Shown in pieces: positions 20,165 through 48,703 of a stretch of 64,000 nucleotides of DNA (positions are counted from its first letter, which is position 1; each line of letters starts with the position of its first letter). Where the stretch lies: the NCBI GenBank assembly GCA_000091205.1, contig AP006487.2; one strand, given 5' to 3'. Below the pieces are notes generated by a model. It had not been told where the DNA came from. It made no database searches and saw only the letters and a program-made list of their open reading frames with translations. Origin of the DNA: Cyanidioschyzon merolae. Its lineage: Eukaryota. Both the position numbers and the translations under genes were made by a program.

Positions 20165-20290
20165 GCGGCGCATCGCCCTGCAGGCGCGATTGCTGTCGCT
20201 TTCGGCAGGCTCGTCACACGATAGGACGTATGAAACGACCAGAATATCCGAGATGAAGTATAGGTAATGCAACTTGGGAATAGGGGGTTG
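20165..20290 (-). repeat. Copy 1 of a short dispersed element (about 130-170 bp family; other copies at 38120-38260 and 55390-55580)
   Basis: The reverse complement aligns to 38120-38245: ...tctcggatattctggtcgtttc[a/g]tacgtcctatcgt[g/a]tg...gcctgccgaaagcgacagcaat[c/a]gcgcct[g/a]cag... It also shows up as shared peptides in the spurious ORFs: LGYSGRF[I/V]RPIV, LPKATAIAP, ISDILVVSYVLS, AESDSN. It sits about 230 bp upstream of the CenH3 ATG. Confidence 0.75.
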
Positions 20291-30535: not shown

Positions 30536-30957
30536 TTCGAAACCCTTTTGGCGCCAAATTTGGAGCGTGCGTGCCACCGGACACCAAATTAAAACCTGAA
30601 TCTTTCTGTATATATCTGGATAAGAAGGACACTTCCAATGGAGATGCGCGCACCTTGCCGGCTGCGACTTCTCTGCAGCGCCCTCGCCCGAGTGCCGAGC
30701 GCCTCCATCCGGGCCATCTCCGTCGCGTCCTGCCTCCGCATGGCGCCCGCAGCGGCGTATCCAGTGTGGCAGGGCGCGCGCGCCCGCAGTAGACGCCGCA
30801 CACGTCCAGTTGCTGGATCGATCAGGCTGCTGTTCAAGATGAACGGACTGCTCTGGAGCCTGCCAATTCCAGGAGCGCCTCTGCGCGGGCATCGCGCTGG
30901 TCTCGCGGTGTCCCGCCAAGCAGCGCACAGCCTCGGCGTATCTGCTGGGTGCGGCGG

Positions 30958-33900
30958 ATGCACCCCCCAGCGTCACGTCCAGCGTTGATCGCCGCCGCGG
31001 CTTTTTCGATGTGCCTGCGGCGATTCGAAATGCGCGTCACGAAGGCGCGGTGCAGCGACGCGGCGGGCGCGCTCCCTCAGGTTCCTCGGGGGCGTACTGC
31101 GCAGGTTCTGGCGTTCCGGGGTATGGAGCTTGCTGCCAAGCGCTACTCGACAGCGTTCTGTGAACGACCGATCAGAGCGTGGAGAGAGCACAGTCCGGCT
31201 CGGTCATCTGTTGTATTAGCGCGGCTGCTTGCAGAGGACGCGGTTGCTGCGGAGGTGCGGAACGATTACGAAGCTGCCTACGAGCGGTATTTCGCTTCGG
31301 CAGACGCTCTCTTCCGTGCCGTACAAGTTTTGGAAGCGTGCCCCGATGATCAGGTGCTGACTAGTCATGATCCGGTTGGTGAAAGAGTCCACGGTAATGA
31401 CTTTCAAAAAGAGACCCCAGAGCGGGCGCGGGGCTCAAGTCCGCTCCCCAGTGAGACGTTGCGCACGCTCTGTTATCGGCAAATCGAAGCGCTCATTGCG
31501 CGCTGCGAAGCCATTCGAGAGTACCTGTACGCGTCTGCCATGGCCAACGAGGACGCATCCGACTCGTCGCTTGATGAAAACTTTCTACACATTGGATATT
31601 CGCCTGGAGAGAAGCTGCGCTCGGAAAAGCCCCGTTGTACCGGTAGCGACAGCGGAGACAGAGAGCAGGTCGGATCTGCACTTCGCCAGCGCCTAGAAGC
31701 GTGTCGAGCGATGCAGGAGGCGCTTGAGCAGAGTCGCTCGGCAGCATGGCTCATGGATGCCACCTTGCTCGTTCAGCGGAATCATACGAGCGCCCGCATT
31801 CCGCTGCAGAAAATCCCCGAGCGTGCCGTTCCGTCGGAAGCAGCGCCAAAGCGAAACCTAGCAGCGGGAAAATTCGATGAGCGCTGGAATCTTGTTCCAG
31901 GCTCTGATCCCGTCCACATCTCTTCTCCGGGTGACGAAGCGCGTACACCGTCACCAGCGCAGCGCAGGCTCGCTCGGGGACTCGCTTGGATGCAATCACC
32001 GAGCACGCCATCCGAAAGCGATGCGTCTAGTGCGACAGCAGCAGTACCAGCCGCAACAGCTAGTGCGCACAGCAGTTTCGTGTCTCGTACACCGCAGATA
32101 CTAGCGACGACAACGGTCGAGACGCCTCGCCAACGTACGGAACCGGAGCGCCTTATCGCAAGATCGCCCAGTGATGCCCGTCATGAAAGTTACGCGACAG
32201 AGAGCAATCTTTCTCACGGGACGCAAATGACCGCTTCATATCGCTCGCGAGCTGTGAAACCTACGCTGGTGGACGAGCGGCCGCCCACAGTGCCAAGCCC
32301 GTCCGCCTCTTCAGCGCAAGCAATCCACCGCCAAGCAACCAAACCGGAGCAAGACGTCAGACAAAGCACGCGGGGGCATGCAGCGGCGCGAGCACCAGCT
32401 GCATCCGCAGCATCCGACGATGCTGTGAGAGGCAACCGTTCATCAGCAAGCCCCAGTGAGGCTTCGGAAATCCGCTGGCCCCAACGCCTGGAGTTTGTCT
32501 CCTCTGGAGAGCGTTCACTGACGCCAGAAAAACCACGCACACGAACAGACGATGCACATGTCGCTGCAAATTCATTGGATAGCGATATGAGATCCTTTCG
32601 CACGGCGCCGGATGAACGGAATCCGGATACACCAGCCGAGCGCACCCTGGATGTGGCTGCATCTGGTTGCTCGGGAATCGTCCCGGACCCCAGTGCCGGA
32701 GACGAAGATATTCTCGTTCATACGCAAGCAGCAGCAGCAGCAGCAGCTGCTGCTGCCGAAGCCCGTCTCGTTATTCAGCAAGAGCTCGCTCGACGTTTCC
32801 AGGAAATTCGCCAGCAGCAGCGGGAGCATGCACATCCCGCACACCCCGAGCAACAGCAGCGGGAACAACGAGACCGTGCGACTGATCAGCAGCTGGATGT
32901 ACGAGATACCTCGACAGTGGCAGCAGCAGCAGCAGCAGCCCCGTCGATCCGTACGGATCCGAGCGTTTTCGAAACGACTTGCTCGTCGGAGTGGTGCTCA
33001 AACCAGTCCTCCATTTCCCGTTCGCGATACGAAGCGATGAAGACGCGTGTAGCACTCATGAAAGAGCGCCTCGGCAAGATGATGCTCGCGGGCACCTGCT
33101 CGACAACGATCGTCATGAGTGCAGCGCCTGCCGAAGATGCCACCCGTTTCCCCAGACACGAAGCACCACCCAAAACGACTGCTGCTGCAATGCAGACACG
33201 GCACACGGCGAGTTCGCCAAGTTCCCTCGGTGCCGCATCGAATGCGCTTCAGCTAAGTCATGCTATCGTGAACCTCCATGCCGGTACATTCGGGGAGTTC
33301 AAGCGCCTCGAACCGCTGCCAGCACAAGCGGCGACACGCTGGAGCATGGAAATCGACTTTCTGCTATCGCCATGTGAGCAGATCGTCGTTCGTACGCCAG
33401 TCAGACGAACACTTCCAGACGGAACCAGTGTTGAAGTGTTAGAGAGTCGTCTGCGCGCAGATATCGGAGAGCACCTTCCACGACTACGCAGTTTGGATCA
33501 TGCGATCCGAGAAATGCTGCGTTCCTTTCGAGAGCTCAGCGGTGTGCTTCATTACGAATCAACGGCTACTCGAGGACCGGACTGGTGGATTGAACGCCCA
33601 CGAGTTCCCACCGAGGGCCTATCACCAGGCATCCGAGCGTTGTTGCAGCGCTCGTTCGCCGAGGCTCAAGATATCCAGCGCGTTGCTCGCAGCATTAACG
33701 AACAGGTCTTGCGTTCGATACCTTGTCCAACCCGCGAGTATTCCTGTAGCTGTTTCGGGTATGATCTCAGCGAGCTGACCAGCGCTTGGTCGCTGACCCC
33801 ACGGCGACGTCCGCTTATTCGCGTCCGCGAGGTGCTTGGCCCAGACCTCTACGAAGCAGTGACCAAGAACGCCGCCTTCAGTGCCGTTGCCTATGCTCGA

Positions 33901-34884
33901 ACTGCCGTGCTCCGCTTGTCAACGGATGCTGTGCTGCCGCTGGGCGTCGACGCGGATGCACAAAACGCAAAACTAACCCAACTGGTGGAGCGTCTGGAAA
34001 GAGCCGAGTTTGTGTATCGGCTGAAGATTGACAGACTGAACCAAGCAAGTCGCTTTGGGATTCCATGGCGCCGGGAGAAGCTCGAGCGTTGCTATGCTGC
34101 ACGTCGTCGGTGTGAGCGAGGTGCACACGCTTTACGGGAGATATTCACGGGGGTAGGCCATACAACCAGAGATCAGTGTGCCATTCGTTACAATACGGAT
34201 GTGGGCACAGCGATTCTCGAGGCATACGCCCGTGTTCTGGAACATCGGGCTGCGGCGATTGGCAAGCGCATTCGACTGGTACTAGAAGCGGATCAGCGAC
34301 AGCAACAGCAACTACAACAACAACAACATCAACGGCTGCGGTCTGGACGAGCAGGTGTGTCCCTGCGAGCATCAGGGTCGCGGCTGGAGCTTTCTAGTAC
34401 GCAGCGTGCCGACGCTTGTAGCAGCAGCAGCAGCAGCAGCGGCAGCAGCAGCGGCAGCAGTAGCAGTGGCTATCCTGCGAGCGACTTGCCGCCGCCGCCG
34501 CCGCCGCCGCCGCCTGCACTTGTGGAACGTCCTCGGACGATGCCAGCGGGTCTCTTTGCTCGCCAGCATCGCAGCAGCGCCTGTCGCTCGCACCACTGCC
34601 ACGCTGAGGAGCTCACCACCGAGGCCAGCGTATCGCAAGGCATGCGTTGCGGAGCTGCTGTTTCAGCGAACAAGGCATCACGCACTGATCCTCTCGCTGC
34701 CGTGAGAGACAGCGGCGCAGAGACGCTTCCGGTGCGACGCACGACGGCCTTGGCACTGTGGACGAACGCTCACCCGCCTGCACCAGAGCAGGCTATCGAC
34801 ACCAGTCCTGCATGTGGTCGGTCGGTGGTATCGAAGCAGCGAACGTCTCCAGAGACGGCATCCGAACATGAGCGACCTGCATAG
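30958..34884 (+). CDS. Large (about 1308 aa) low-complexity protein with an N-terminal MIT-like three-helix domain and an uncharacterised conserved-looking C-terminal region
   Basis: Residues about 90-200 follow the MIT pattern: helix 1-2 VLARLLAEDAVAAEVRNDYEAAYERYFASADALFRAVQVLEAC and helix 3 LRTLCYRQIEALIARCEAIREYLYAS. Several poly-Ala, poly-Gln and poly-Ser runs. The C-terminal about 450 aa (about 33200-34300) is non-repetitive and domain-like but I could not place it. The ORF-track start at 30949 is GTG, so I used the first ATG, 3 codons in. Confidence 0.5.
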   Translation: MHPPASRPALIAAAAFSMCLRRFEMRVTKARCSDAAGALPQVPRGRTAQVLAFRGMELAAKRYSTAFCERPIRAWREHSPARSSVVLARLLAEDAVAAEVRNDYEAAYERYFASADALFRAVQVLEACPDDQVLTSHDPVGERVHGNDFQKETPERARGSSPLPSETLRTLCYRQIEALIARCEAIREYLYASAMANEDASDSSLDENFLHIGYSPGEKLRSEKPRCTGSDSGDREQVGSALRQRLEACRAMQEALEQSRSAAWLMDATLLVQRNHTSARIPLQKIPERAVPSEAAPKRNLAAGKFDERWNLVPGSDPVHISSPGDEARTPSPAQRRLARGLAWMQSPSTPSESDASSATAAVPAATASAHSSFVSRTPQILATTTVETPRQRTEPERLIARSPSDARHESYATESNLSHGTQMTASYRSRAVKPTLVDERPPTVPSPSASSAQAIHRQATKPEQDVRQSTRGHAAARAPAASAASDDAVRGNRSSASPSEASEIRWPQRLEFVSSGERSLTPEKPRTRTDDAHVAANSLDSDMRSFRTAPDERNPDTPAERTLDVAASGCSGIVPDPSAGDEDILVHTQAAAAAAAAAAEARLVIQQELARRFQEIRQQQREHAHPAHPEQQQREQRDRATDQQLDVRDTSTVAAAAAAAPSIRTDPSVFETTCSSEWCSNQSSISRSRYEAMKTRVALMKERLGKMMLAGTCSTTIVMSAAPAEDATRFPRHEAPPKTTAAAMQTRHTASSPSSLGAASNALQLSHAIVNLHAGTFGEFKRLEPLPAQAATRWSMEIDFLLSPCEQIVVRTPVRRTLPDGTSVEVLESRLRADIGEHLPRLRSLDHAIREMLRSFRELSGVLHYESTATRGPDWWIERPRVPTEGLSPGIRALLQRSFAEAQDIQRVARSINEQVLRSIPCPTREYSCSCFGYDLSELTSAWSLTPRRRPLIRVREVLGPDLYEAVTKNAAFSAVAYARTAVLRLSTDAVLPLGVDADAQNAKLTQLVERLERAEFVYRLKIDRLNQASRFGIPWRREKLERCYAARRRCERGAHALREIFTGVGHTTRDQCAIRYNTDVGTAILEAYARVLEHRAAAIGKRIRLVLEADQRQQQQLQQQQHQRLRSGRAGVSLRASGSRLELSSTQRADACSSSSSSSGSSSGSSSSGYPASDLPPPPPPPPPALVERPRTMPAGLFARQHRSSACRSHHCHAEELTTEASVSQGMRCGAAVSANKASRTDPLAAVRDSGAETLPVRRTTALALWTNAHPPAPEQAIDTSPACGRSVVSKQRTSPETASEHERPA

Positions 34885-34974
34885 ATGACGGCTTTGACCC
34901 GTCTACGCGGCATCTTTTCGAATGAACATCCCTCGAACAGTATGCTCATGGAGCGCGTCCGGCTTTCGTGAAGG

Positions 34975-35340
34975 TCATCCGCTGAGAGCGATGGCGGCAT
35001 GTGTCCGACGAACGCTCGAGCTTCGTTCACCGCGTCGACTCATTCTGGATCGACGCTGACGCAGGCACGTTTCGTAGGTATCGGCATCCAGGTTCATGAG
35101 CAGGGTCTGCAACTGTCGTGTCAGCTGTTGGATGCGCGAGTCCCAGTGACGCGCGTTCACGTAAATAGCCTCGGCGAGTACCGGAAACGTATCACTTCGA
35201 TACAGCAACAGCATTTGGCGAAACCATGAACGCGGTGTTTCCAACGCGGGATGCTGCTTGCGTCCATAGGTCTGCTGGTGGACTCCATGGTGTCCAGCGG
35301 GTCTGGACTCGTCAGCGGTATGGTGCAGCAAAGCGCGTCC

Positions 35341-35379
<39 letters not shown>

Positions 35380-35595
35380 ATCATCATCGTCGTCATTGTC
35401 ATGAAGAATGCGATTGGGGGTCGCATGGCCAACTGCGTCCCAGGGGTCGCCCGCTGAGCCATACTCGCGCCCCGAGTCATTCTCCAGGAGCAGCAAAAGC
35501 GCCTCCTCGGCGACGTCCCGGTGCGCAGAAGTCATACAACGCGCCAGTCGGCGAAACACCAGAGGCACCAGCGATGCATCGCGGGAATCGGGTGC

Positions 35596-35632
<37 letters not shown>

Positions 35633-37746
35633 AGTCCACGCGCTGGTGCTGCCCGCCATTGCTGCTCCAACAACGACGCCATTTCATCGAGAAAGAGCAT
35701 CTCTTTGCGCGTATGACTCACTGGCCAGTGTCGAAGCAGGTACATCACCGTAGCGGTTGCCAGCGTGCTGTCCTTGGCAGCAAACTGAAGCGCACACTCT
35801 ATGAGCTCCGTCGCGTACACCACGTATCCATCTGGTGCGTGAAGCGGAAGCAACGCCTGACAATAAAACTCCGCATGCTCTCGCTTGAGCGGTACAGCCA
35901 ACCCCTGGATAATGAGCACCAGAATACTCAGCAGATCGGCAAGTCCACGCACCAGCTGTGCATACGCAACGCCATCGTAGCGATAGGGCAAGCAAAGATC
36001 GCAACTGATGCGACTGCGGATCAGCGTTCGCAGGTCCCGAAAACGCGCATAGATACGGTACAAACAGATCTTGACGTATTCGCGTTCGTAAGCGGGTGCC
36101 TGGAACAGTCGCAGGATGTGCGGAATGAGTCGTTCCCAGAGATCCACGCGTGTGGTCGGCGAGACGGCCACCAGACCAGCCAGTCGTTGCTGACGTACGT
36201 CGGTATCGTGGCGTTCGGGGTCCAGGAACTCGAGCACCAGCGCATACGCACACTCGACCTGGGGCCACCAGGTATCGCCTGCCGTTGGGTCAGTGTCGCC
36301 TGCCGCTGGAGCCGGGCTCCGGCTCGATACGCTGGTAGGCACCGGTTGCCCGCCAGGCAAGCTCCATGGAACGAAGACCTCGTCGTCGGCGAGCGCAAGA
36401 CGCTCGTCTTCGGACATGGGCGGTGGCTCCCTGGCTGCCAAGTGCTCATGGACGAGAATCAGTAGCGCGCTGTACACTGCGGCGTCGGGGGCAAACGCGT
36501 CTGGCTGGGTCTCGGCCCAGTCGACCAGGTCGTTGAGTGCCTCGACTCGTTGTCGCACCTGAGCTGCATGGCGAGCGTCCCAGCTGCGACTACTGTATAA
36601 CGGTTGGCTGCATGCCTGCAGCTGATACAGGAAATCGTCCTGACTGCGTACCTGGGAACGTCCGCGGGGCGATCGACTGTGACCCGCGTCCGAGGACGAC
36701 TGGGATCGACGAGAGCGCGACCTTGAGCGTCTCTCGCGGAAGCTCGGTGGTGCCGCGGCGCGTGCACCCGCAACTCCGTACAATGAGGCAGGAGCATGGA
36801 AGCTGGTGCCGAATGCGCCCATACCGCTGCCACCCGAGGACGCTGTGCCGTTCGGTGCGGCACCGGGCTGACGCTCGCTTGCAGCATCTGCCAGCGAAGC
36901 GACGCTTGGTAGCGAAGGAGTACCAGCACCAGTGGCGCCAGCGGATGACGGCGGTGGCGAGCCTACCGGGGTGCCTGTGTCCGTCGCCCAGGCGGCAGAG
37001 CGCCAGCGCCACGCGTCGCTTGGGGCGTCGGGGCGCGGGCCGCGGCGCTGGCTCCACACTGCAGCAAACGCGCTCGATGTTCCCGCAATGGGCATCGGGG
37101 GCGACTGCTCGTGACTCGCTGCTGCCGAGAGGGCAGGCTCGGGTATGGGCTCCTCGGCGGCTCCCGGGTCGCAGGGCCTCGGCCACGCTGTCCCCAGCGC
37201 CAAAGCCTGGTGCGCAGTCCGCTGCTGATCGACAGCGTCCGGCACTGTAGAGTCGCTCGAAGTGCTCTCGTCGTCGGTTTCGCTTGTGCCGGGCGAGTAT
37301 CGAGACAGCGGCTCAGGTCGCGTCATCGTATCGCTGCTGGGATAGCTGACGCTGCCCAGTGTACCAGCACTGTTCCCGTGGGCGCTGCGCGCCGACGTGG
37401 ACCGGTGCACGTCGCCGGCTCTGCGCTCGGCTGCTCTGGGAAAGCCAGACGACATCGGCTCGCTACTCGCCATTTGGCCAGATATTCGGCCAGTCTGCGC
37501 TGTCTGCAACGCCGAGGGACTCGAACGCTCAGCGCCTGTCCTGTGTTCGATGACGGTCAGTCGATCGAGTGCCTGTAGCGCTGCCACCGAACTGGGGCGC
37601 GATGCTCGACGTTCCGAGTCGCTGCGACTCGGCGACGCAACAGCCGGTGCTGGCAGCTGTGCTTTGGCCTCTGGCCCCAGCGGTACACTCGACTGGGGTG
37701 ATGACGCTGCTGCACCATGTTTCCTGTCTCGGAAGGGCCACCGCAT
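34975..37746 (-). CDS. PP2A regulatory subunit B56/B' (PR61) family, 923 aa; about 450 aa Ser/Pro/Ala-rich N-terminal extension, poly-Q and poly-D inserts
   Basis: B56 core motifs in order: FLDPERHDTDVRQQRLAGL, ICLYRIYARFRDLRTLIRS, HAEFYCQALLPLHAPDGYVVYATELIECALQFAAKD, YLLRHWPVSHTRKEMLFLDEMASLLE, VFRRLARCMTSAHRDVAEEALLLL. ATG start. Confidence 0.85.
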
Positions 37747-38119
37747 CAGTTAAGCGGCCGTTGCATACGCCGTTTACGTTTCAGGAGAAATAATGATACC
37801 CGAATCGGCGCGCTGGGCGTTGCTCTCGGCCATCGACGCCGAGCGCCGCTGGGCGCGGCATATCATCGTCGGGTGCGGCTGCGCGCCTGTGCTCCCTGGT
37901 CCATCAGTGATGCAGCTGGGCTCGTGATCATCACAGCAGTGCCCGCTGGAGTACCTTCTGAAGCATGGTATTTGCATTGGTTTGTGTTGCGCATAGGTAG
38001 TCAACGCATGGCATGGATGTGCGCGCTCGGCTGCAACCAGCGGATGTGCCGAGACGTGGTGCGGTCGCTGCATGGGGCTACGAGAAGAAACGGGCATTTA
38101 TTGTACAATTCAGTCATCC

Positions 38120-38260
38120 TATAGGTACTCGCTGGATCTCGGATATTCTGGTCGTTTCGTACGTCCTATCGTATGTGCCTACTGCCTGCCGAAAGCGACA
38201 GCAATAGCGCCTACAGCGCCGATGCGGTCGCTGCACGGAGACAGAACGGCGTTGCCGTGC
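38120..38260 (+). repeat. Copy 2 of the short dispersed element (see 20165-20290 and 55390-55580)
   Basis: DNA alignment to the other two copies as described for copy 1. It lies in the divergent intergenic region between the B56 gene (ATG at 37746) and the MARVEL-like gene (39767). Confidence 0.75.
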
Positions 38261-39766
38261 ACCATACGGAGGGCGTCGGCTCGCGTGTCATCGCTGGATG
38301 CGCCTCGTTTCTCGAGTCCGTTTCCTGTGTGTGTGGTATGCGCGTCAACCGGGCCGTATTCGACGCTACCTACGCGACTAGGTCCTTGGAAATCCATAAA
38401 GGTACGATTGACAAGTCATGGAATGCAAAGTTTTCGTCCCGTTGATACGAACGTCGCTGAAGGGAAACGGATGCATGCAGGGGTACGCACGCTGGCGTGG
38501 GAGAGCTGCTCGCGCGTTCATCGATACTCGCGATCGATTTCGTGCGGGAACGCGAATACTGATTGCAACACGATCGGCTATTCGTCTCATTCGGACGGAA
38601 TGTATCCGGGGGCTACATGGTATACTCGTCTGTGGGTGCAAACTTAGTGCAAAGCGCTACTCGTAGATCGGCGACCGGCGTGCATCCCGACACCTCGAAT
38701 TCCGTCGTACGCATGCAGGATGCACGGCTTTGCACGCTTCATTCAGCGCGTTCGTAAGCGTCTGCACGGCTCTTGCAGACCAGATTCGCAAGCGTCGAGA
38801 TGATCAAGCCGGTGCTCGCCGATGATTCGTATTGTAGCGAGACAAGACGTGTGCTCTCGCCAGTTCGTTCAGCGCTTTCGAAAAGAAAACGACCGACAAG
38901 CGGCATCGTTTACTGGTGCTAGCCTCTGTCGCAAGACGTGCCGTACCGTGTCAAGGCCGTGCGCTTGCGCTTTCGATAAGAACGCCCAACGCGTGCTGGA
39001 ATCGACGCAGTCAGATTCCCGTCGATGCCCCCAGGGCGACAAGCATGCATCGGCATCTGGGGCGCGCGCTGAAACTGGTAAATATAACCATCACGTAGCG
39101 GTTTCGACGTTCGAATGGCCTCAGCATCGTGCTCCTGTTGGAGATAGGGCCTGGATCGATCCAGCGACCTCGTGACTGCCAGTTTGATCAGGGCGCTTGA
39201 TCCGTCACGCGTCGATGTATCGTTACCGCGTTCGCGATACCTCCACCGAACGAGACGCCCGTGTTTGTCCTCGCGTCATCCCAGGGCGTAGCGACCTTGA
39301 GCGGCAACACCCGAAAGCACGCGCGCATGCCACAGCCCGTCATCGCTGCATCGGGACGCGCGCAAACTGCCGAATCCTCCCCGAATGACCCAGAGGTTTT
39401 CCGTCTCGATCATCAACTCGTATCCGTGCATTTAGCGAGGCGTTCCGGGATACGCGTATGCCGTCTGGTATCAGGAAAGCAGCACACACGCTTCTGTGTT
39501 TATGTTTATGCGGGTGCATATGCCTTGGCGTTCACCACTCGACATTATTCCAGAATCCGTGCACGCGATGCTGCCTGCAGCGCGCCTATCGCCACCGCGC
39601 GGACACGTCGCGCACGCGATCTGCGCGCCAGCCAGCCGTTGATGCGTGTCCTGCAATGCGTGTATTTTCTGTTTTACGTGACGTGTTACGTTGCCGCCTT
39701 CTTCACCGGTGCGCTTTGACGAACATTGCCTTCGAGGCGGCACGTTTCGTAGTGGATTGATTTTTC

Positions 39767-40723
39767 ATGGATTTCGAGCAGGGCTGGTCACAGAGGGCAC
39801 AGCGACCGGAGACACAGCGTGCTGAGGGGTCGCGCTGGACCCCAGACCCCAAGACGCGACCTGTTGCCAGCGAACGCAACGCTCGACCCGCTGGCGACGC
39901 GTACATTCCGAGCACTTCCGTTCAAGGCTGGAAAGCTGCACCAGCGCCGGTGGAGCTTGGCAACGACACACTCGACGACACGGACTCGGTGGGCAACGTT
40001 GGTGGTGGCGGGCCCCAGACGGGTCCCACGAAGGTCGGCGCCGGTGCCGCTGAACCCGCTTTGACGTTCGGTGCGGCGAGTGTTGGACCCTTTCCACCAG
40101 AGCAAGAGCCGGTGTGCCTCTGTCGTGTGCGCTCAGTGGGTGAACTCGCGTTTCAGACCTGGTGCAGCCTGTCCAAGACCCTGCTCTATTTGTGTGAGTT
40201 TACCTGGGCAATCGTGGTTTTCGGTGTGACAGCGAATTCCCTGTACAATGGGAGTCAGTGCGCGCTGTCGAGCACGAACTCGACGGCGCTTTGCCGCTAC
40301 GCCATCGCCCTGGGAGTCATCGGCTGGGTCCTCGTCCTGATCCTGTCTGTTGTGTATTTCGCAACCAACGCACTGGCGAGGATTCTGCCGCCCGTGTACG
40401 AGATGATCGTGCAGTTGTTTCTGATGGTCTGGTGGTTCATCGGCAGTGTTGTGATTAGTGCAAGCCTTGGAAGCTCCTCTCCGAATCAGGTCAGCATCAA
40501 TACGGTAATTGCTTTTAGTTGGATGCTATTTGTCATGCATTTGGTGCACAGCGGTATTTGTCTTTGGCAGTGGCTGGAATCAGCCGGAGTGCTAGCAACG
40601 AAGACGACGACGACAACAACAACAACAACGACTATTGCGCGTGAACAGCACGCACCTGCGACGCGAAAGACAGGACCGCCATCACCGGTTCTAAGTGACC
40701 ACACGGTGCACAGCGGCGTGTAG
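39767..40723 (+). CDS. Four-transmembrane MARVEL-like (physin/CMTM-like) membrane protein, 318 aa, poly-Thr tail
   Basis: Four hydrophobic segments of about 20 aa: LLYLCEFTWAIVVFGVTA, AIALGVIGWVLVLILSVVYF, MIVQLFLMVWWFIGSVVISA, VIAFSWMLFVMHLVHSGICLW. Spacing and conserved Cys/Trp positions are typical of MARVEL domains. ATG start. The family call is tentative. Confidence 0.45.
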   Translation: MDFEQGWSQRAQRPETQRAEGSRWTPDPKTRPVASERNARPAGDAYIPSTSVQGWKAAPAPVELGNDTLDDTDSVGNVGGGGPQTGPTKVGAGAAEPALTFGAASVGPFPPEQEPVCLCRVRSVGELAFQTWCSLSKTLLYLCEFTWAIVVFGVTANSLYNGSQCALSSTNSTALCRYAIALGVIGWVLVLILSVVYFATNALARILPPVYEMIVQLFLMVWWFIGSVVISASLGSSSPNQVSINTVIAFSWMLFVMHLVHSGICLWQWLESAGVLATKTTTTTTTTTTIAREQHAPATRKTGPPSPVLSDHTVHSGV

Positions 40724-41675
40724 AAGTCGATGCGGTCCCAGAGCGCAGTGCGCTGCACGGACGGTGTCCAGCGTCTGGAGCCGTCAAGAGTCGTGAACGC
40801 TGGTTTGTTCACAGCGTTTCGGCTGGATTCGGCGGCATCGGGGTCATCGTGTGGTTCGCGGATGCATCATCTCGGAGACGTTCCCTGCTGAGCCGCATCT
40901 TGTTTCGGGGATTTGTGCGAACACTTGTCGCAGGAAAAGAGGGAGAACCACGCGATCGCTGGCAGCGTCGTATGCAGCGATGTCGTCACTGAGTGGTACG
41001 GCTTGAGCGCGTTCAATTTAGCGATGCTCGCTGGGAGCTATTTTGTCTCTGCGGAAAGGCAGTCGTCGAGGCTGTTCATACCAGATGCTTCATTTTATCG
41101 AGCAGCGCAGACGATTGTTGTTGAATTCGCTATTGGACGGAGGAGAACAGCGCGCTTGCGCTTGCTTTTGGAGCGAATTGCATCCGAGCGATGCCCGGAG
41201 AGCGCGCATGCACGCTCTGTCTTTTGCACGCGAGTATCATGCGCACTCAAAGACTAGAGATCTGGAGAGCAGTTTGAAAGCCCCTAGCGCGCTAGCATTT
41301 GCCTAGGTCGGAATGCGCTTCCAGCGATGGATCTGAGCCCCGAGCGCCGTGCAAGCAACAGCGAAGCACATGCCGCAGTTGCCAAGAACGCAACCACGGG
41401 TTTTTTGTCCGCAGGCGTCCCGCGTGAGCGAAACGCAACCGAGTTCAGTGCTTGCTGGCTGAACACCCGAAGATCGTGAAACGCACACTGTCCAAATCAT
41501 CGATATAGTAGGATGTCCAAATAGACAGCATGCTTTAGAGCTACTCGAGGCATGGTAAAAAGATACAAGGCACCGCATCTGCATCGTCTACGCAAATCTG
41601 CACCGCGATCCCAACGACAACGAGCCGCAGCAGCCGAGTCCGACGAGGCATGCGCACACATCGAGTATCGAACAG

Positions 41676-42115
41676 CTACCGCTTGCACAAAGCAGCACCG
41701 CCATCATGAAAGGTAAAGCACGCGATGCGTTTGAGCGTCAAAGGCAAACACCCGTGTCAGTTTCAAATGGAACGGGTTCACTAGGCTACCGCTTGCACAA
41801 AGCAGCACAGCCATCATGAAAGGTAAAGCACGCGATGCGTTTGAGCGTCAAAGGCAAACACCCGTGTCAGTTTCAAATGGAACGGGTTCACTAGGCTGAC
41901 GCTTGCACAAAGCAGCACAGCCATCATGAAAGGTAAAGCACGCGATGCGTTTGAGCGTCAAAGGCAAACACCCGTGTCAGTTTCAAATGGAACGGGTTCA
42001 CTAGGCTACCGCTTGCACAAAGCAGCACCGCCATCATGAAAGGTAAAGCACGCGATGCGTTTGAGCGTCAAAGGCAAACACCCGTGTCAGTTTCAAATGG
42101 AACGGGTTCACTAGG
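41676..42115 (+). repeat. Minisatellite: 110 bp unit x 4 head-to-tail copies (>95% identical)
   Basis: Unit ctaccgcttgcacaaagcagcaccgccatcatgaaaggtaaagcacgcgatgcgtttgagcgtcaaaggcaaacacccgtgtcagtttcaaatggaacgggttcactagg, repeated from 41676 to 42115 with 2-3 substitutions per copy. 110 is not a multiple of 3, so it is not a coding repeat. Confidence 0.9.
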
Positions 42116-43507
42116 CTGATCTGGACGCACATCGCAAACCCCTGGTCTCTTCCAAATGTCATCAAGGCTAACCTCTGCGGGACTTGTCTGCGACTGCTTG
42201 CGTTTCCTATCTATTGCCTCCAGTTTTAAATGCGCCGGTCTCTCCAGTGTCAGTGGCTCCGATGCAAGCAGTTGATGGGTCCTCGTGGCAACCTTAGAAT
42301 CCCGAGAGCGCCGCTTCCGGCTATTGTGGAGACATATGACGCACAGGCGCTAGTCCCGATCCAGGCATCGCGTAGAAACTGAATGCGTTTCTCAGACAAC
42401 CTCGGTGCGTCCTGTGTAGCGGCGACACGCGCCAGTGATTATGCGTCCCCATTCGTTCACGCAACCAGCGCCACCAGCGCCTGCTCTTCCGAGCGCCGCA
42501 CGATGGCGCCCAAACGCTCGCTTGCTCGCTCCACACAGGTCATTGACGAGTACGGAACGCTTCCCTAGATATCCTCGCGCGTTTCAGCGCCAGACACCGG
42601 CCCCCGCGATCACGTACCTGTTCCGGGCGATGCCGTCGACGAGTACGCTGTCGGATGCACACACAAGCGCACACTGTTTCATTCGATCAAGGATTTGTGG
42701 AATGCGCGGTTGTCCATAATGAGAATCGTGCCGGGAGAAGGACTACCCAAACCGGAGAACAAGTCGAGAAATTTCGATCTGTCTACGCGCCATTCATGAA
42801 AGCGGAGGCGTACTCTGTACGTTTAGCGATCGCTGCAAACATCAAGGTCCGAATCCAGGACCCTTTTCCATGCAAACAGAAGCATAGGGAACCTCTGGTA
42901 GCATATTCCGAGAGAAATATCACGCAGATGTGGAAAGTTGTCCAGTCGATAACCAAAAAATGCGGAGTATTTGTCTTTGGAATGAAATTCTTTACTTGAC
43001 GGTGCACGCTCAGTGACCGTTCGACGTGCGCTCGGGAACAACTCGTCAACAAACGACGTCGAGTATCCTCGCTCGTCGATTCAGCGACGCGGTTAACGGT
43101 ACCCATGAGTTGCCTCGAAAGAGAACGGTCGAAAACTTGAAAATTGCCCGATTGATGCACGTTCCACGCATCGAAACGAGATGCGTGAACGCATTGACGT
43201 GCGAATCAAAGAACCACGTCGGTTACTTGACAAACCCGTGGTTGCATGCATCACGAGTCACACAGAGTCCTCTGAGGTACCATATTCCAGCACCGAAGCG
43301 TCAAACAAGTCACTCCAAAGAAACAACCAAGCATTCTAGAACAAGGTTCGAATCCGTTATCTCCTCTGCCTGCACGGCCTATGTCGATGTTGCCCATCTA
43401 AACGTGTCCGACGGTAATCGCTTGGCAAGAGCAGACCATTGCTCCACCCAAGTGAAACACAGAGATACGTACAGAGAGCCACTTTTGTGTGGCATGCATG
43501 CAGCCTA

Positions 43508-43514
43508 TCGACAC

Positions 43515-43547
<33 letters not shown>
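43508..43547. repeat. (CAG)12 microsatellite, intergenic, about 450 bp upstream of the second B56 gene
   Basis: cagcagcagcagcagcagcagcagcagcagcagagg seen directly. Confidence 0.85.
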
Positions 43548-43549
<2 letters not shown>

Positions 43550-43999
43550 GGCAGCCTTGCGCGCGCTGCACGCACGCGCGGTACCAGGCATCGAATCATC
43601 GCGAGATCGCGCTGCACGCGCACGCACCTACGTGTCCAGCAGTCGAGCGTAGAGCGCCTCGATCACGCGCATCGCGGAGGCCTCTGGATGTAGCCGCTGA
43701 TCGAGATTGCGCCGCGCGCGCGGGCGGCGTCGACAACCTCATACCGGCACGCCATCGTAGAAAAGCCCCAAAAGCCACCATCGTCGTCGTCGCCGTCGTC
43801 GGTGGTATCGAGGCTGCGCGTGGGTGTATCTGGGGTCTATCCTCGTTGTTTGGGTCTATACAAACACACACACACACGGGCAAGTCGTTTGCCGTTTAAC
43901 AGTTGCGGGCTCTACAGTCTGTGAAGGGAAAACGCTTGTATAACTTTTGGGTTGTGCATATGGGCGCTTTGTGTTGAATTCAACAAAGTGCTCACGTCA

Positions 44000-46900
44000 A
44001 TGAACGAGCTTGCAGAGCAGGAAGGCGTTCAACGTTCTCGCACTGCTGCGCGGCCTATTCGACCGTTGAGTCGGGCGTGGAGTGCCGGTTCTATGGGGTT
44101 TGGCGAGCACCACCAGGCTTCATGGGTCACTCCAGAGTATGAGTCGACGACGATCGGGGTTTCTGCGCGGAAGCCGCAGCTGGAGCGCCCTATCGCGTGT
44201 GGCGGTTCCAGTAAGGTCGCCTCGGGTTCCGTGGCTGGCGAACGCGGCGCGAGCAACGCGTCGCCGCTGCCACCGCCACATGAAACCCCGGAGCCTCACT
44301 TTCCGGAACAAACGGAGCGGGTTTCGCTGGAACTGGAACCATCACCGGACAGCTTTCTGCAGGATGAGCCCGAGCTACGGAAAACAACGGGCGCAGATCG
44401 CAACGGTGCGGCACTGCGCTCGCAAAGTCTCCAACGTGCACTGGATGCGCTGGTGCAGCCATACGCGCCACCCCAGAGGGAACAGAGGCGCACGCGTGTG
44501 ACGGAGACACAGCGTGCGCAGCCGGCCTCTCCGTCCATCGAAGCATGCGGGAGTACACGAATCACAAGTGAACAGAGAATAGTTGCTCAGACGGAGCGTC
44601 CATTGTGGAACGACAACACTGGAGCGCTGCGCCGTCCTGTGCAGCAGCTGCATCCACGACATGAGCTTTTTGTGCAGATGATGCGGGATCTCGGTGCCTT
44701 CGAAGGCACATCGTCCCGTGGGAATGGGGATACCTCGGGTGAGGCGGCTGCGTTAACGCTCTCGGAGATTCTGAACTTACCTCCGATTCGCACGATTGTT
44801 GACGATGAGGCACGAGCGCGGGCAATAGCGCTCAAACTTGAGTTCTGCACCGTTGTGCCGTCATTACCGGAATGGATTGCGGAAACCGAGTATAACCAGC
44901 GTGTTGAGCGGTGGCTCCATTATCGACACGCCCAGGCTCTGCAATCTCTCCGTACAATGGTAGCCATTTCAGATCAGCTTGAACCGGAATCCTCGGAAAG
45001 CGTTCAAGAGGAAAGTAAGCGCCAACCGATTGGCGGCGAGCACGGCAACTTGGGCGGAATGTACGTTGGTCTGCTGGCACACAAGAGCTCTCGAGCCGGC
45101 TCTATTGAACGGACATCGCCTCCGCGTATGCGAGCGAGCCGCTCAGCGCCGGCCCTTGGACAACTCGCCTGCGAAGATACGATGCTGGAGGGTCGCGCTG
45201 CGCTCCGCAACGTGGTTGAGCGCTTTACGCGATTAGCCACGAACAAAAATGCTTGCCGGGCAGCCGCAGAACAGCAAGGCGTAGCACCCGGCGATACGCA
45301 GCAGGGGACGGTTGCTGGACTTGAGGTGCCGCGCACGACGCAGCACAGCGGCACGGGAGTAGTCTGTTCGGCTGGTGCGTCAGCAGCACCTGCTGCAAGT
45401 AGTATTGGTGCTCTGTCTGGCTCCACGGCGCCCGATCGTAGCGTATTGCCCGAAGAATCGTCGTCACCGACGCTGTCAGCAATGCCCGCAACGACCACGA
45501 CAGATGAACCAGGCGATTACAAGCAGGAACCTCTGATCAGAACGCCAGCAGACCTTATGGACCTGAAACGCGCTGTACTGGCGGACCTCTTGGACGCCGC
45601 AGAGCAAGCGCGACAGCATGGAGAATCAGCGTTCACGGGTATATGGAAGGAGCAGGAGCGGGAGCAGGCATCCGCTCCTCCAAGTCCGCGAATGCCATTC
45701 ATCTTTCAGATTACGAGCAGCGGCAACGCCTTGGAACGCCCAGTACGTGATGCCGGTATGAGCGCCGCCAGCTGGAGTTGTCGCTCACAAACGAGTTCCT
45801 CCTTCTTTTGTTATCCTCTCTTGTCCAAGTGGGTGCGGTTTTTTGCAGCCAATCTCTTCAGACCGTTGCCGCTGCGAAAGCGTCTCGCTGAACCCGAGTA
45901 CTTGAGTGAACGGGAAACGCCGACTCTGCACTACGTCTCGGAGCGCAGCAGCAGCAGCAGAGCGTCAGCCGCGCGACCAGGCAGCCCTGCACCCGTCGAG
46001 GGAGCAGCTGCCCGTGGATGTGTCGCCGATATCGACCACGTTGTATTCGTCGATGATGAGTTGACCAATCCGTGGAACCTACTCGACCCGGTCTGGCCGC
46101 ACTTGGAACTCGTGTACTCGCTTTTCATCGAATTTTCGCTCTGCCGCATCGGCCAAGTACCCGAAGGCGTGCAACTGGGCGAAGAACTTGCCGCGAAACA
46201 TTTCAACGAACGCTTCTTGCATGCACTTTTGAGCCTCTTTGTTTCGGAGGATCCGCGGGAGCGAGATGCGCTCCGGACGGTCGTGCACCGTCTCTACGCT
46301 CGGTATGCAGCACTCCGTCCGTCCATTCGCAAGGTGATGGCTGAGGTGGTCTTTGCGCGGCCTATTGCGGAAGATGATGTTTTCCGGCAAATCTCCTGGT
46401 TTCCACACTGTGCCCACATGCGTACGTCGAGTGCGTTAGCGCGCACAACTTGCCCAGCAGAGACGAGGTCACGTAGTGAGCGTTATCCCCAGCGAGCACG
46501 CTGCACGAACCTCCCCGAGAGTGCAGCACTCGCTGCCGATTGTGGTCTCCGCGTCCAGAACACTGAGGTTTTCCTCGCTGGCTCACATCCGGCTGCGATC
46601 TGGGGAGGACTCTGCTACAACGGCGTCAGTGAAGCACTCGATATTCTCGCCGCGATCGTTGCTGGGTTTTCGACCCCGCTGCGCGAAGAACATCGGTACT
46701 ACTTTCGTCGAGTACTTCTGCCGATGCACAAAGCGCGTGGACTAGCGCGCTATCATCGGGAACTCACCATGTGCATTGTGTTTTACGTTTCCAAGGACGT
46801 TTCACTGGGTGTGGAAGCGATTCGGACTCTGCTGCGCCACTGGCCTCAGACGAGTGCGCGGAAGCAGCTTCTTTTCCTCACGGAGATGAACGACATTCTC

Positions 46901-47467
46901 ACAGCTTGCGGCATTGCGTTGAGCCGCTCAGCGGATACCGCTCGACAGCGCACCGCGCATCCAGGGACGATCCAGTCAAGTCGTCGTCGAGTCGCCTTTC
47001 ATGGACGGTACGCGATGATTGCGGAGCGTTCACGCCAGCAACAGCAACAGCAACAGCAACAGAGTGCGCACATCAACCTGGTTTCTCTGGTGAATCAGTT
47101 TGCAGTGCTGGTGCCTGCGATATTTTCGCGGCTTGCGGAATGTATATGCAGCTCGCAGATGGATGTGAGTGAACGTGCGATTTACATGGTTAGCAACCAG
47201 GAGTTAATCGGAGAACTAGTTGAAAAGTATCGCGCCCAGGTCTATCCGATACTGGTACCCGCGGTGTACCGAACGAGCTCCGAGCACTGGTCTCAAGAGG
47301 TGCGGCACATGGCAACCGTGCTTGCGGGGCTTCTCGAGCAGCTCGATGTGGATCGTTTTCGACAATGGGCACGAGCCGGGCACATGGAGAGCCCTTCGCA
47401 AACTTCACCTTGTCATGCGGAGCGTGAATCACAAGACTTGCACAGAATGCTCAGCTATGCCTCGTAA
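44000..47467 (+). CDS. Second PP2A regulatory subunit B56/B' paralogue, about 1155 aa; about 700 aa low-complexity N-terminal extension
   Basis: B56 core at about 46020-47400: FIEFSLCRIGQVPEGV, FVSEDPRERDALRTVVHRLYARYAALRPSIR, EHRYYFRRVLLPMHKARGLARYHRELTMCIVFYVSKD, LLRHWPQTSARKQLLFLTEMNDIL, FSRLAECICSSQMDVSERAIYMVSNQ. The ORF-track start at 43952 is TTG. The first ATG (MNELAEQEG) is at about 44000. Confidence 0.85.
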   Translation: MNELAEQEGVQRSRTAARPIRPLSRAWSAGSMGFGEHHQASWVTPEYESTTIGVSARKPQLERPIACGGSSKVASGSVAGERGASNASPLPPPHETPEPHFPEQTERVSLELEPSPDSFLQDEPELRKTTGADRNGAALRSQSLQRALDALVQPYAPPQREQRRTRVTETQRAQPASPSIEACGSTRITSEQRIVAQTERPLWNDNTGALRRPVQQLHPRHELFVQMMRDLGAFEGTSSRGNGDTSGEAAALTLSEILNLPPIRTIVDDEARARAIALKLEFCTVVPSLPEWIAETEYNQRVERWLHYRHAQALQSLRTMVAISDQLEPESSESVQEESKRQPIGGEHGNLGGMYVGLLAHKSSRAGSIERTSPPRMRASRSAPALGQLACEDTMLEGRAALRNVVERFTRLATNKNACRAAAEQQGVAPGDTQQGTVAGLEVPRTTQHSGTGVVCSAGASAAPAASSIGALSGSTAPDRSVLPEESSSPTLSAMPATTTTDEPGDYKQEPLIRTPADLMDLKRAVLADLLDAAEQARQHGESAFTGIWKEQEREQASAPPSPRMPFIFQITSSGNALERPVRDAGMSAASWSCRSQTSSSFFCYPLLSKWVRFFAANLFRPLPLRKRLAEPEYLSERETPTLHYVSERSSSSRASAARPGSPAPVEGAAARGCVADIDHVVFVDDELTNPWNLLDPVWPHLELVYSLFIEFSLCRIGQVPEGVQLGEELAAKHFNERFLHALLSLFVSEDPRERDALRTVVHRLYARYAALRPSIRKVMAEVVFARPIAEDDVFRQISWFPHCAHMRTSSALARTTCPAETRSRSERYPQRARCTNLPESAALAADCGLRVQNTEVFLAGSHPAAIWGGLCYNGVSEALDILAAIVAGFSTPLREEHRYYFRRVLLPMHKARGLARYHRELTMCIVFYVSKDVSLGVEAIRTLLRHWPQTSARKQLLFLTEMNDILTACGIALSRSADTARQRTAHPGTIQSSRRRVAFHGRYAMIAERSRQQQQQQQQQSAHINLVSLVNQFAVLVPAIFSRLAECICSSQMDVSERAIYMVSNQELIGELVEKYRAQVYPILVPAVYRTSSEHWSQEVRHMATVLAGLLEQLDVDRFRQWARAGHMESPSQTSPCHAERESQDLHRMLSYAS

Positions 47468-48703
47468 TGGAATTTACAAGCGCTTGAGTATGAAGGCATG
47501 GACTCGCTCGCGTGTGCATGCAAGTGCTTGTTGGGGAGCATACCCCCCGACCCGAGGACCTGAGCGTTAACAGAGCTCCGTACCTCGTTCACGATAGATC
47601 GCGATCGTCTAGCGGTGCAACTGCCCGACACCTGACCCGAGCGCATGTATACCGGGCCGAATAGAGGCGCTCCATGGGTGTCCATGCGCAGCAGCGTGGC
47701 ACGGAACGCTGCAGCGCGCCGACGAGCCACGTGAATACCCGTCGTCGAGATGTAGCAGCAGTGAAACGTCACTTTCTAGCGCTCGTGCTTACCGGGGGAT
47801 TTATTCCATGTTTGGAAACAAGGTTTCTCCAGTGCAACGTGACTGGTACGACGTGCTACCAGCAGCGTTGCTGGTAAAGCTATTCAAATACACGAGCGCA
47901 GCATGCAGCCATGCGAGCTGCTGCTGCTGATGCTGCTGCTGCTGACGACTGCGACGACGACGCGAAATGAATGTTTGCGGAGATTGTCCGCTCGTGCCAA
48001 TCCAGCTAGATGTTCATAAGATGTATGTTGTAGAGCAGATGAAAAGCAATGACAATGCGCGGTGGTCATGACTTGAATTGTTGAGCGCGCTGTATCTATG
48101 ATGTCGGAAGCGATGCTATTGGGCACCAGCGCTCAGACAACCAGAGTCATGGCTGGTGGAAAGGGGATGAAAACGGGACCAGCCCCATCGCGCCAAAGCT
48201 TCCCATTCTGACTTAAACTTAATCGAGCCGGAGGGAGAAATCGAAGCGACGCATTCACGTCCGTCCTTGTACCCGTCAGCATGCGCATGCTGCTGTTGGT
48301 GCTGCTGCATTCGCAGCGACACCCGCTTTGCGACCTGCGTTGGTGGCGAGCGCACCAGTCCGCTCCCGCGCGGCCACCGCTGCGGGCTAAAGCTGTCGTC
48401 TGACATGTGCCGGTGTCTCGCGAGCTGGTCTCGTTGCGGACACTGGTTACGAGTATCAAGTCACCAGTCCGCAGAAAAGCTGCGCATGTGCTCCGGTTCG
48501 CGACCTAGCCACGCGCTCCAGCACGTACCACGGGTGCGTTTCCCGTTCGTTCAGTGAGCGCGCTGCTGCCGACCAGTGCCGCGATGCGCAAAAGCCGCAT
48601 TTTTCACACCAACGGCATGCAGGCGTCCACATTGACGACTGTGCTCGACCAGGCCGCCTGCACGCACTACATCTGTCGGCGCTTGAAGCGCGCGTCGCAA
48701 CCC

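Follow-up and report, generated by a model that had tools for sequence, protein, structure and literature searches.

A stretch of 64,000 nt from the genome of the red alga Cyanidioschyzon merolae strain 10D (the window, to which all coordinates refer) carries two large open reading frames (ORFs), A and B, that a first-pass annotation assigned to the B56 (B') family of protein phosphatase 2A (PP2A) regulatory subunits. B56 subunits choose the targets that PP2A dephosphorylates, and their groove and acidic patch are regarded as almost invariably conserved. The locus raises a question of origin and one of extent: whether the two genes descend from an old local duplication, and whether the long sequences that precede their conserved cores are protein. 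The evidence makes it likely that A and B are two functional, highly diverged PP2A B56 subunit genes, linked since a duplication that preceded the split between Cyanidium and Cyanidioschyzon. Nothing specific to B56 or PP2A in C. merolae, or to the phylogeny of red-algal B56 proteins, was found in the literature.

Family, fold and domain boundaries

ORF A (34975..37746, minus strand) encodes an A-type B56 protein of 923 aa, and ORF B (44000..47467, plus strand) a B-type protein of 1155 aa; the positions, strands and lengths originally given for both are correct. The ATG of A lies two codons downstream of an in-frame TAA, while B extends from its first ATG at 44000 to 47467. Assignment to the B56 family is borne out by Pfam, by a PDB sequence search and by the predicted fold. 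The Pfam B56 model (PF01603, cut-off 25) matches A with E = 4e-51 and 174.6 bits and B with E = 5e-72 and 243.6 bits, and no domain besides B56 is detected in either protein by Pfam at E <= 0.01. Among PDB sequences, human B56 chains (B56gamma) are matched with E = 5e-32 for A and E = 3e-50 for B. AlphaFold2 (AF2) models built from 88-sequence alignments have a predicted local distance difference test (pLDDT) score mostly above 90 in the core, and both show the all-helical architecture of HEAT-like repeats known from B56. Foldseek returned 23 PDB matches at E <= 0.001 for each model, every one of them a B56 chain; the target-normalised template modelling score reaches 0.81 for A and is 0.74-0.79 for B.

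The two cores are far apart in sequence. Aligned directly, as the first-pass annotation had proposed, they are 28% identical over about 200 aa (BLASTP) and 29-31% identical over 375 model columns, so that the divergence it described is indeed high. Word-indexed protein searches gave at least three matches with each of the full-length proteins and at least one with a trimmed two-sequence core alignment. The wider family comes from an exhaustive HMMER search of 1.84 billion representatives, which yielded 2933 matches. These are headed by the cyanidialean orthologues and by three multi-stretch gene models from an orchid, Closterium and a tsetse fly; the rest are generic B56 proteins at no more than about 237 bits.

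Core boundaries were placed with a hidden Markov model (HMM) of B56 built for this analysis from 95 canonical representatives. The original description gave pre-core extensions of about 450 aa in A and about 700 aa in B, and both figures are too large: by HMM and AF2, the core begins at about aa 365 in A and about aa 250 in B. In A, the HMM sets the start of the core at aa 339-369, and AF2 agrees, with disorder over aa 1-331 (pLDDT below 50) and order from about aa 369. These boundaries give a disordered N-terminal arm of about 365 aa (aa 1-365; 36652..37746, minus strand). It is rich in Ser, Ala, Pro and Arg (S 18%, A 17%, P 11%), and SEG masks about 31% of it as low-complexity sequence.

Orthologues of A include P0002, P0003 and P0170, and comparison of A-type sequences reveals conserved islands within this arm. 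One is ALQALDRLTVIEH (aa 55-68; 37543..37584, minus strand), in which A59-V65 and H68 are invariant in Cyanidioschyzon, Cyanidiococcus, a relative and Cyanidium, and a short helix is predicted at aa 53-64. An Arg/Ser-rich island, RRSRSRSRRSxSSSDxGxSxSPR (aa 336-368; 36643..36741, minus strand), directly precedes the core and is near-invariant in all four A-type orthologues. The islands kept as far as Cyanidium caldarium are ALDRLTV.xH, an acidic SE(T)DDE...SSDS cluster, W..R...R and, next to the core, RRSRS.SRRS.SSSD.G.S.SPR.

Within the core of A, the poly-Q and poly-D inserts reported earlier are real, namely Q10 (aa 707), D5 (aa 785) and Q12 (aa 790). The first run lies in an insert (aa 695-721; 35584..35664, minus strand) that the HMM insert table places at the acidic patch, after the equivalent of B56gamma E316. 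The other two lie in a disordered insert (aa 757-843; 35218..35478, minus strand), which is found only in A-type proteins, where 48-80 aa follow HMM position 396. The pLDDT is mostly below 50 over this second insert, and a helix is predicted for the poly-Q run only. Its poly-Asp run is kept across genera, in the three full-length A-type sequences.

The architecture of B is more intricate. Its N-terminal arm (aa 1-247; 44000..44740, plus strand) is mostly disordered, with pLDDT below 50 over aa 1-217. The first core helices, corresponding to HEAT 1, follow at aa 248-330 (44741..44989, plus strand), where HMM positions 33-74 fall at aa 248-290, in the same place in all four B-type orthologues. 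Profile-profile comparison of aa 240-335 with canonical B56 (hhalign) gives a probability of 76% and E = 2e-5, and the AF2 model predicts helices to aa 325, with pLDDT of 84-93 over aa 250-280. A VPSLPEW motif in these helices is invariant from Cyanidioschyzon to Cyanidium. HEAT 1 is then split by an insert of about 185 aa (44990..45541, plus strand), defined by orthologue alignment. The insert has low pLDDT over most of its length, with a helix at aa 394-426, and its motifs GMYVGLLxH and VVERF are conserved; profile-profile comparison finds no match between it and canonical B56.

The remaining core of B (aa 515-1155; 45542..47467, plus strand), delimited by HMM domains, the insert table and AF2, resumes at aa 515 with the nearly invariant TPADLMDLKRAVLADLLDAAE. 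Further HMM segments cover aa 599-643, 694-795, 873-970 and 1032-1133, and are separated in part by inserts at aa 644-693 and 796-872. Another insert, with a Q9 run (aa 969-1031; 46904..47092, plus strand), occupies the same acidic-patch position as that of A, and 46-64 aa follow HMM position 334 there in all B-type proteins. Since the first helices of B lie at about aa 250, B has no 700 aa of pre-core sequence, but an arm of about 250 aa, with the insert in HEAT 1 (about 185 aa) and loop inserts of 50-77 aa further on. The description of both extensions as low-complexity is overstated, especially for B. SEG masks only about 15% of B aa 1-690, and aa 301-598 are strongly constrained between two Cyanidiococcus-lineage genomes, with 67% identity and a ratio of nonsynonymous to synonymous substitution rates (dN/dS) of about 0.08. 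Much of the supposed extension of B is core and conserved insert.

The poly-Q tracts are of a different kind from these conserved elements. Homopolymer runs of at least five residues occur in 7 of the 18 long ORFs in the window. A CTG repeat at 35599-35630 underlies the Q10 insert of A, and a CAGCAA repeat at 47036-47062 the Q9 insert of B. In near-identical strains (P0001, L003), Q-run lengths differ by 3-5 codons. The tracts are CAG/CTG microsatellites of a kind typical of this genome, variable in length between strains, rather than conserved functional elements, in contrast to the poly-Asp run of A with its conservation across genera. Trinucleotide repeats of the GCA/CAG type are also present at 35342-35379, in a poly-Q tract like the two just named, and at 43515-43548, in the intergenic sequence upstream of B.

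Origin of the pair and translation of the arms

Both genes have been retained, and retained together, beyond C. merolae. In Cyanidiococcus yangmingshanensis the order PRONE(+)/A(-)/MARVEL(+)/B(+)/acyltransferase(-) is that of the window, and the same gene order occurs in metagenomic relatives (L002, L004). A scan of metagenomes found a single locus, from a strain more than 99% identical (L003), and the linkage is kept there too. The A-type gene CDCA12G3353 of Cyanidium caldarium is about 5 kb from its B-type counterpart, CDCA12G3350. In this genome (JANCYW010000012.1; 764..13537 of the retrieved locus) the PRONE-A-MARVEL block is inverted, which places A and B on one strand, and an MCM_bind gene lies between PRONE and B. 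Conservation of synteny, proposed earlier as a check, is thus found in every one of these genomes, with the block inverted in Cyanidium. Core identity between orthologues is only 53-60%. As both types are present and linked in Cyanidium as well, the pair existed and was already linked before these genera split. Cyanidium also has a third, canonical B56 gene (C-type; CDCA06G1958, P0171) on a different chromosome, with a close homologue in a metagenome-assembled relative (P0172).

Whether A and B are each other's closest relatives was addressed with neighbour-joining (NJ) trees of 152 sequences over 375 model columns, using Kimura and gamma distances and 200 bootstrap replicates. The A and B orthogroups are each monophyletic in 200/200 replicates. 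They are grouped as sisters in 165/200 replicates, and in 73-80% with gamma-corrected distances. Two kinds of shared character accompany this grouping. An insert after HMM position 334 is present in all A-type (15-30 aa) and all B-type (46-64 aa) proteins, and absent from the C-type and from all 142 other B56 representatives. Both types also have derived residues at two sites that are 85-91% conserved elsewhere, with a change from Q to D at HMM position 358 and from Q to E at position 283. Among the best 150 of the 2933 HMMER matches, no further sequence joins either clade; nor is any A- or B-like sequence from Galdieria among these 150, although one could still be present in that genus. Tree, insert, derived residues and linkage, taken together, make it very likely that A and B arose by local gene duplication, and the old local duplication that the first-pass annotation suggested is supported. 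On the sequence evidence, A and B are probably sisters.

Some observations weigh against this conclusion. The core of A is 29-31% identical both to that of B and to that of the C-type, while identity between B and the C-type is higher, at 37-39%. When one clade is removed, the other joins an unrelated single taxon in the NJ tree. The grouping itself is built on simple NJ distances and two long branches, with support of only 73-83%, and the two genes are never directly adjacent, being separated by MARVEL in the window and by PRONE and MCM_bind in Cyanidium. All of this would fit two anciently separate B56 lineages brought near each other by chance or rearrangement, with their grouping in the tree a product of long-branch attraction. 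Such an origin is unlikely, because linkage within 6 kb persists in three genera despite the inversion. If the genome has about 5,000 genes, we estimate that chance would place a given pair no more than two genes apart in about 0.1% of cases. Chance adjacency would also leave aside the shared insertion site and the two derived residues, and the fact that nothing else among the best 150 sequences joins either clade.

No profile-profile similarity is detected between the arm of A and the arm of B, nor between the arm of A and either the insert of B or the arm of the C-type. Within each orthogroup, the conservation of the arm extends to Cyanidium, which indicates that the N-terminal elaboration is old. 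Independent elaboration of the two N-termini, also part of the original proposal, is supported by this combination.

The reality of the arms depends on where translation begins. Both ORFs open at a first ATG just past in-frame stops, and the orthologous ORFs do likewise, with the first ATG 2-16 codons after the stop. Given the local base composition, stop-free runs as long as those of A (365 codons) and B (247 codons) would each arise by chance with a probability of about 4e-4, and every orthologue has them too. The N-terminus MRWPFR of A is common to Cyanidioschyzon, Cyanidiococcus and the metagenomic relative. The start Met of B is aligned within two residues in two Cyanidiococcus-lineage orthologues, and a five-residue gap is needed to align that of Cyanidium.

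Substitution patterns point the same way. They were taken from pairs formed by Cyanidiococcus yangmingshanensis and related genomes (L001 vs L002, L001 vs L004); comparisons of C. merolae with Cyanidiococcus were set aside because synonymous substitution (dS) is saturated, and the near-identical strain has two synonymous and two nonsynonymous changes in the A arm, too few for dN/dS. In the arm of A, 333 codons align without a gap between Cyanidiococcus and a relative, with the proportion of nonsynonymous differences (pN) at 0.23 and that of synonymous differences (pS) at 0.55; in the arm of B, pN is 0.35 and pS is 0.65. Frame-breaking gaps are absent from the arm alignments of both genes. In the core, dN/dS is 0.06-0.07 between the two Cyanidiococcus-lineage genomes. 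Values of pN well below pS, without gaps, indicate relaxed purifying selection as expected for disordered protein, and not an untranslated region (UTR). On this sequence evidence, translation evidently starts at the first ATG, and purifying selection on the arms is relaxed but real.

Two points weigh against this: dS is saturated at 1.0-2.9, so that the dN/dS values are rough, and one annotation of the Cyanidiococcus A protein (P0003, 597 aa) starts at an internal Met. Prokaryote-style gene callers applied to metagenomes likewise give shorter models, of 487 and 889 aa. It could accordingly be held that the upstream frames are 5' UTR, free of stops by virtue of GC richness, and that translation starts at an internal ATG near the core, as the predicted disorder of the arms, the scarcity of stop codons in GC-rich sequence and the long antisense ORFs in the window would all allow. 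This is very improbable given the recurrence of such improbable stop-free runs in every orthologue, the orthologous first ATGs shortly past in-frame stops, the peptide islands kept as far as Cyanidium and the 333 gap-free codons with pN below pS. The internal Met at which P0003 starts is a Trp in C. merolae, and core helices of B lie upstream of any such near-core start. Translation of the arms from the first ATG is therefore retained here.

The A orthologue in one Cyanidiococcus yangmingshanensis assembly (GCA_013995675.1; 4125..6639, minus strand, of the retrieved locus) has a frame change near aa 667. The record bridges it with a small 'intron' (826-aa product, 2515 nt), while the other assembly, source of P0003, reads straight through. 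This frame change is probably an assembly error combined with inconsistent start calling.

Docking surfaces and the surrounding locus

Mapping of B56gamma numbering onto A and B, by PDB alignments and the HMM, allows the two known docking surfaces to be compared. The first is the pocket that binds LxxIxE motifs, among whose positions we take Y190, R197, I227, I231, K240 and H243 to belong, following the 2016 papers of Hertz and Wang. Together with H187, R188 and R201, these are kept or conservatively replaced in nearly all eight A and B orthologues. The exceptions are H243N in Cyanidium A and H187Y in C. merolae A. The latter, at ORF A codon 563 (window positions ~36058-36060), is also Tyr in the near-identical strain (P0001), whereas His is present in all other A and B orthologues and in 136/142 representatives. 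H187 contacts the phospho-Ser or Glu of LxxIxE motifs, and the pocket role of H187, R188 and R201 is supported by Wang et al. (PMC7108865).

The second surface, the acidic patch of E276, E310, D313 and E316, is described as perfectly conserved in B56 and required for basic-patch substrates (PMC7108865). It is eroded in both types. A-type proteins have A, T or D at E276, S, V or L at E310 and W, Q or R at E316, and B-type proteins have S at E276, T at D313 and G at E316. Since E316 is variable among the 142 representatives, the firm deviations are those at E276, E310 and D313. The insert common to A and B directly follows the E316 equivalent. The split HEAT 1 of B and the remodelled acidic patch with its shared insert are the sole features of the pair that are mildly surprising to a specialist.

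With the HEAT fold and the pocket residues kept, the predicted A and B subunits most likely resemble canonical B56 in delivering LxxIxE substrates to the PP2A A/C core. The partial loss of the acidic patch and the presence of a lineage-specific loop at that position would alter the binding of basic-patch substrates, and the remodelled patch has probably changed the choice among them. The most likely picture is thus a predicted ordinary PP2A-B56 holoenzyme that docks LxxIxE motifs, with altered secondary, charge-based recognition. In addition, A would have gained an arm of about 365 aa, and B a separate one of about 250 aa together with the insert of about 185 aa in HEAT 1. The Ser/Arg-rich and acidic Ser/Thr islands of the arms may serve phospho-regulated localisation, activity control or autoinhibition. 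By analogy with human B56delta or yeast Rts1, phospho-regulated control of localisation or activity is the most likely role of the arms.

Two observations count against this picture: the H187Y replacement in C. merolae A, and the failure to find in the arms any substrate-mimicking LxxIxE motif whose conservation extends to Cyanidium. The LxxIxE-like sequences of B, LRNVVE (aa 402) and LHYVSE (aa 643), are kept in Cyanidiococcus but not in Cyanidium; the arm of A has none.

One of the copies might also be decaying or non-functional as a PP2A subunit. This would most likely be A, the more divergent, which is derived at 27/90 strongly conserved B56 positions, has H187Y in its pocket, has lost E276 and E310, and has a frameshifted copy in one Cyanidiococcus assembly. 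Its exact 923-aa product, moreover, was not found in a collection of 15 billion proteins. Decay is nonetheless extremely improbable. The ORF is intact in C. merolae, the near-identical strain, a relative and Cyanidium, and the model from the second Cyanidiococcus assembly (P0003) has no frameshift; dN/dS in the core is about 0.07; AF2 predicts the core with confidence and in the B56 fold; and the pocket residues are otherwise kept. As for the missing product, 15 of the 24 members of its 90% cluster are listed, and none is from NCBI or UniProt, while the B product (BAM79328.1) is present in the collection. The public record of C. merolae 10D may lack ORF A or give a different model for it. The product of ORF B, by contrast, is exactly BAM79328.1 / XP_005535614.1, under the record title 'similar to protein phosphatase 2A regulatory subunit B'.

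Beyond two functional paralogues, a bolder interpretation may be considered, in which A and B would form a B56 subfamily so far known from Cyanidiales alone, with the acidic patch replaced by a loop, HEAT 1 split in B, and an undescribed mode of substrate selection or autoregulation. This seems unlikely. If it were true, the proteins' own basic Arg/Ser island or the poly-Asp loop of A might replace the contact between basic and acidic patches, and the tight linkage of A and B would be a sign of complementary holoenzymes under joint regulation in a cell whose gene set is minimal. C. merolae is genetically tractable and has a minimal gene set, so that A and B offer a simple system for the roles of arms and acidic patch in substrate choice. 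As linked and long-retained paralogues, they are also a test case for division of labour, although no known principle of B56 biology is overturned.

The window as a whole is compact, with long uninterrupted ORFs on alternating strands and a GC content of 52-65%, as would be expected of the C. merolae genome. A MARVEL-domain gene (39767..40723, plus strand; PF01284, E = 1.6e-8, 35.1 bits vs a cut-off of 32.8) lies between A and B, and is syntenic in Cyanidiococcus, the metagenomic relatives and Cyanidium. The spacer of 3.2 kb between it and B contains 4.0 copies of a 110-bp minisatellite (41675..42117; Tandem Repeats Finder score 858, 98% matches); the corresponding spacer in Cyanidiococcus is about 1.35 kb. 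In the spacer between A and MARVEL there is a 91-bp copy of a dispersed repeat (38136..38226), 88% identical to 20169-20254 on the opposite strand. Pfam, Tandem Repeats Finder and the repeat match confirm that gene, minisatellite and dispersed repeat are all real, as first described.

On the other side of A, a 1311-aa ORF (30949..34884, plus strand) contains a PRONE (Rop-GEF) domain (E = 1.9e-50). It is tail-to-tail with A across a gap of 90 bp; the corresponding gap is 93 bp long in Cyanidiococcus and 10 bp long in Cyanidium. Gaps of 10-93 bp imply that the 3' UTRs of the PRONE gene and A are very short or overlapping. Antisense ORFs of up to 268 aa occur inside 34975-37746 (for example 35659..36465, plus strand), and are taken as by-products of GC-rich, stop-poor sequence. 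Rfam and tRNA scans found no RNA genes in 34000-48700.

Comparison with known B56 proteins

The B56 family, its fold and the idea of a regulatory arm are all already known, the genome is published, and A and B are divergent members of that family. Relative to the canonical B56 proteins (human PPP2R5A-E; PF01603), A and B share the family, the HEAT-repeat fold and the residues of the LxxIxE pocket, but their cores are only about 25-39% identical to the canonical ones. They differ further in the eroded acidic patch and the loop of 15-64 aa inserted there, and B differs in the insert of about 185 aa that splits HEAT 1 and in the inserts of 50-77 aa in other loops. The arm of A, at about 365 aa, and that of B, at about 250 aa, exceed the median of 53 aa in 123 B56 representatives with an intact N-terminal core. 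In that set, 8/123 arms are at least 250 aa long and 2/123 at least 350 aa, which places A in the top ~2% and B in the top ~7%. The arms are therefore long, but not unique.

The best mechanistic precedent for these arms is human B56delta (PPP2R5D; PDB 8U1X), whose disordered termini carry phosphorylation sites and regulate the holoenzyme (PMC10769853). Its arms are much shorter and are present at both termini, with a substrate-mimicking short linear motif in the protein's own groove, whereas the C-terminal tails of A and B are short. Saccharomyces cerevisiae Rts1, 757 aa in length, is the only B56 protein of budding yeast. Like A and B, it has a long region before the core, phosphorylated in Rts1, but the sequence of this extension and the lineage are both unrelated, and the arms of A and B arose separately, in linked red-algal paralogues. 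Phosphorylation occurs at multiple sites of Rts1, among them Thr242, which is a Cdc28 target (PMC6506691).

The closest comparison by lineage is the third cyanidialean B56 (CDCA06G1958; P0172). It too has an N-terminal arm rich in Ser, Pro and Ala, of about 200-225 aa. Unlike A and B, however, it matches the HMM as one uninterrupted domain (644 bits), lacks the insert after position 334, and retains E276 and E310 together with an acidic residue at D313. Arms of at least 200 aa, unrelated in sequence, are thus present in all three types of cyanidialean B56, and long arms and homopolymer runs are not special to the A/B pair.

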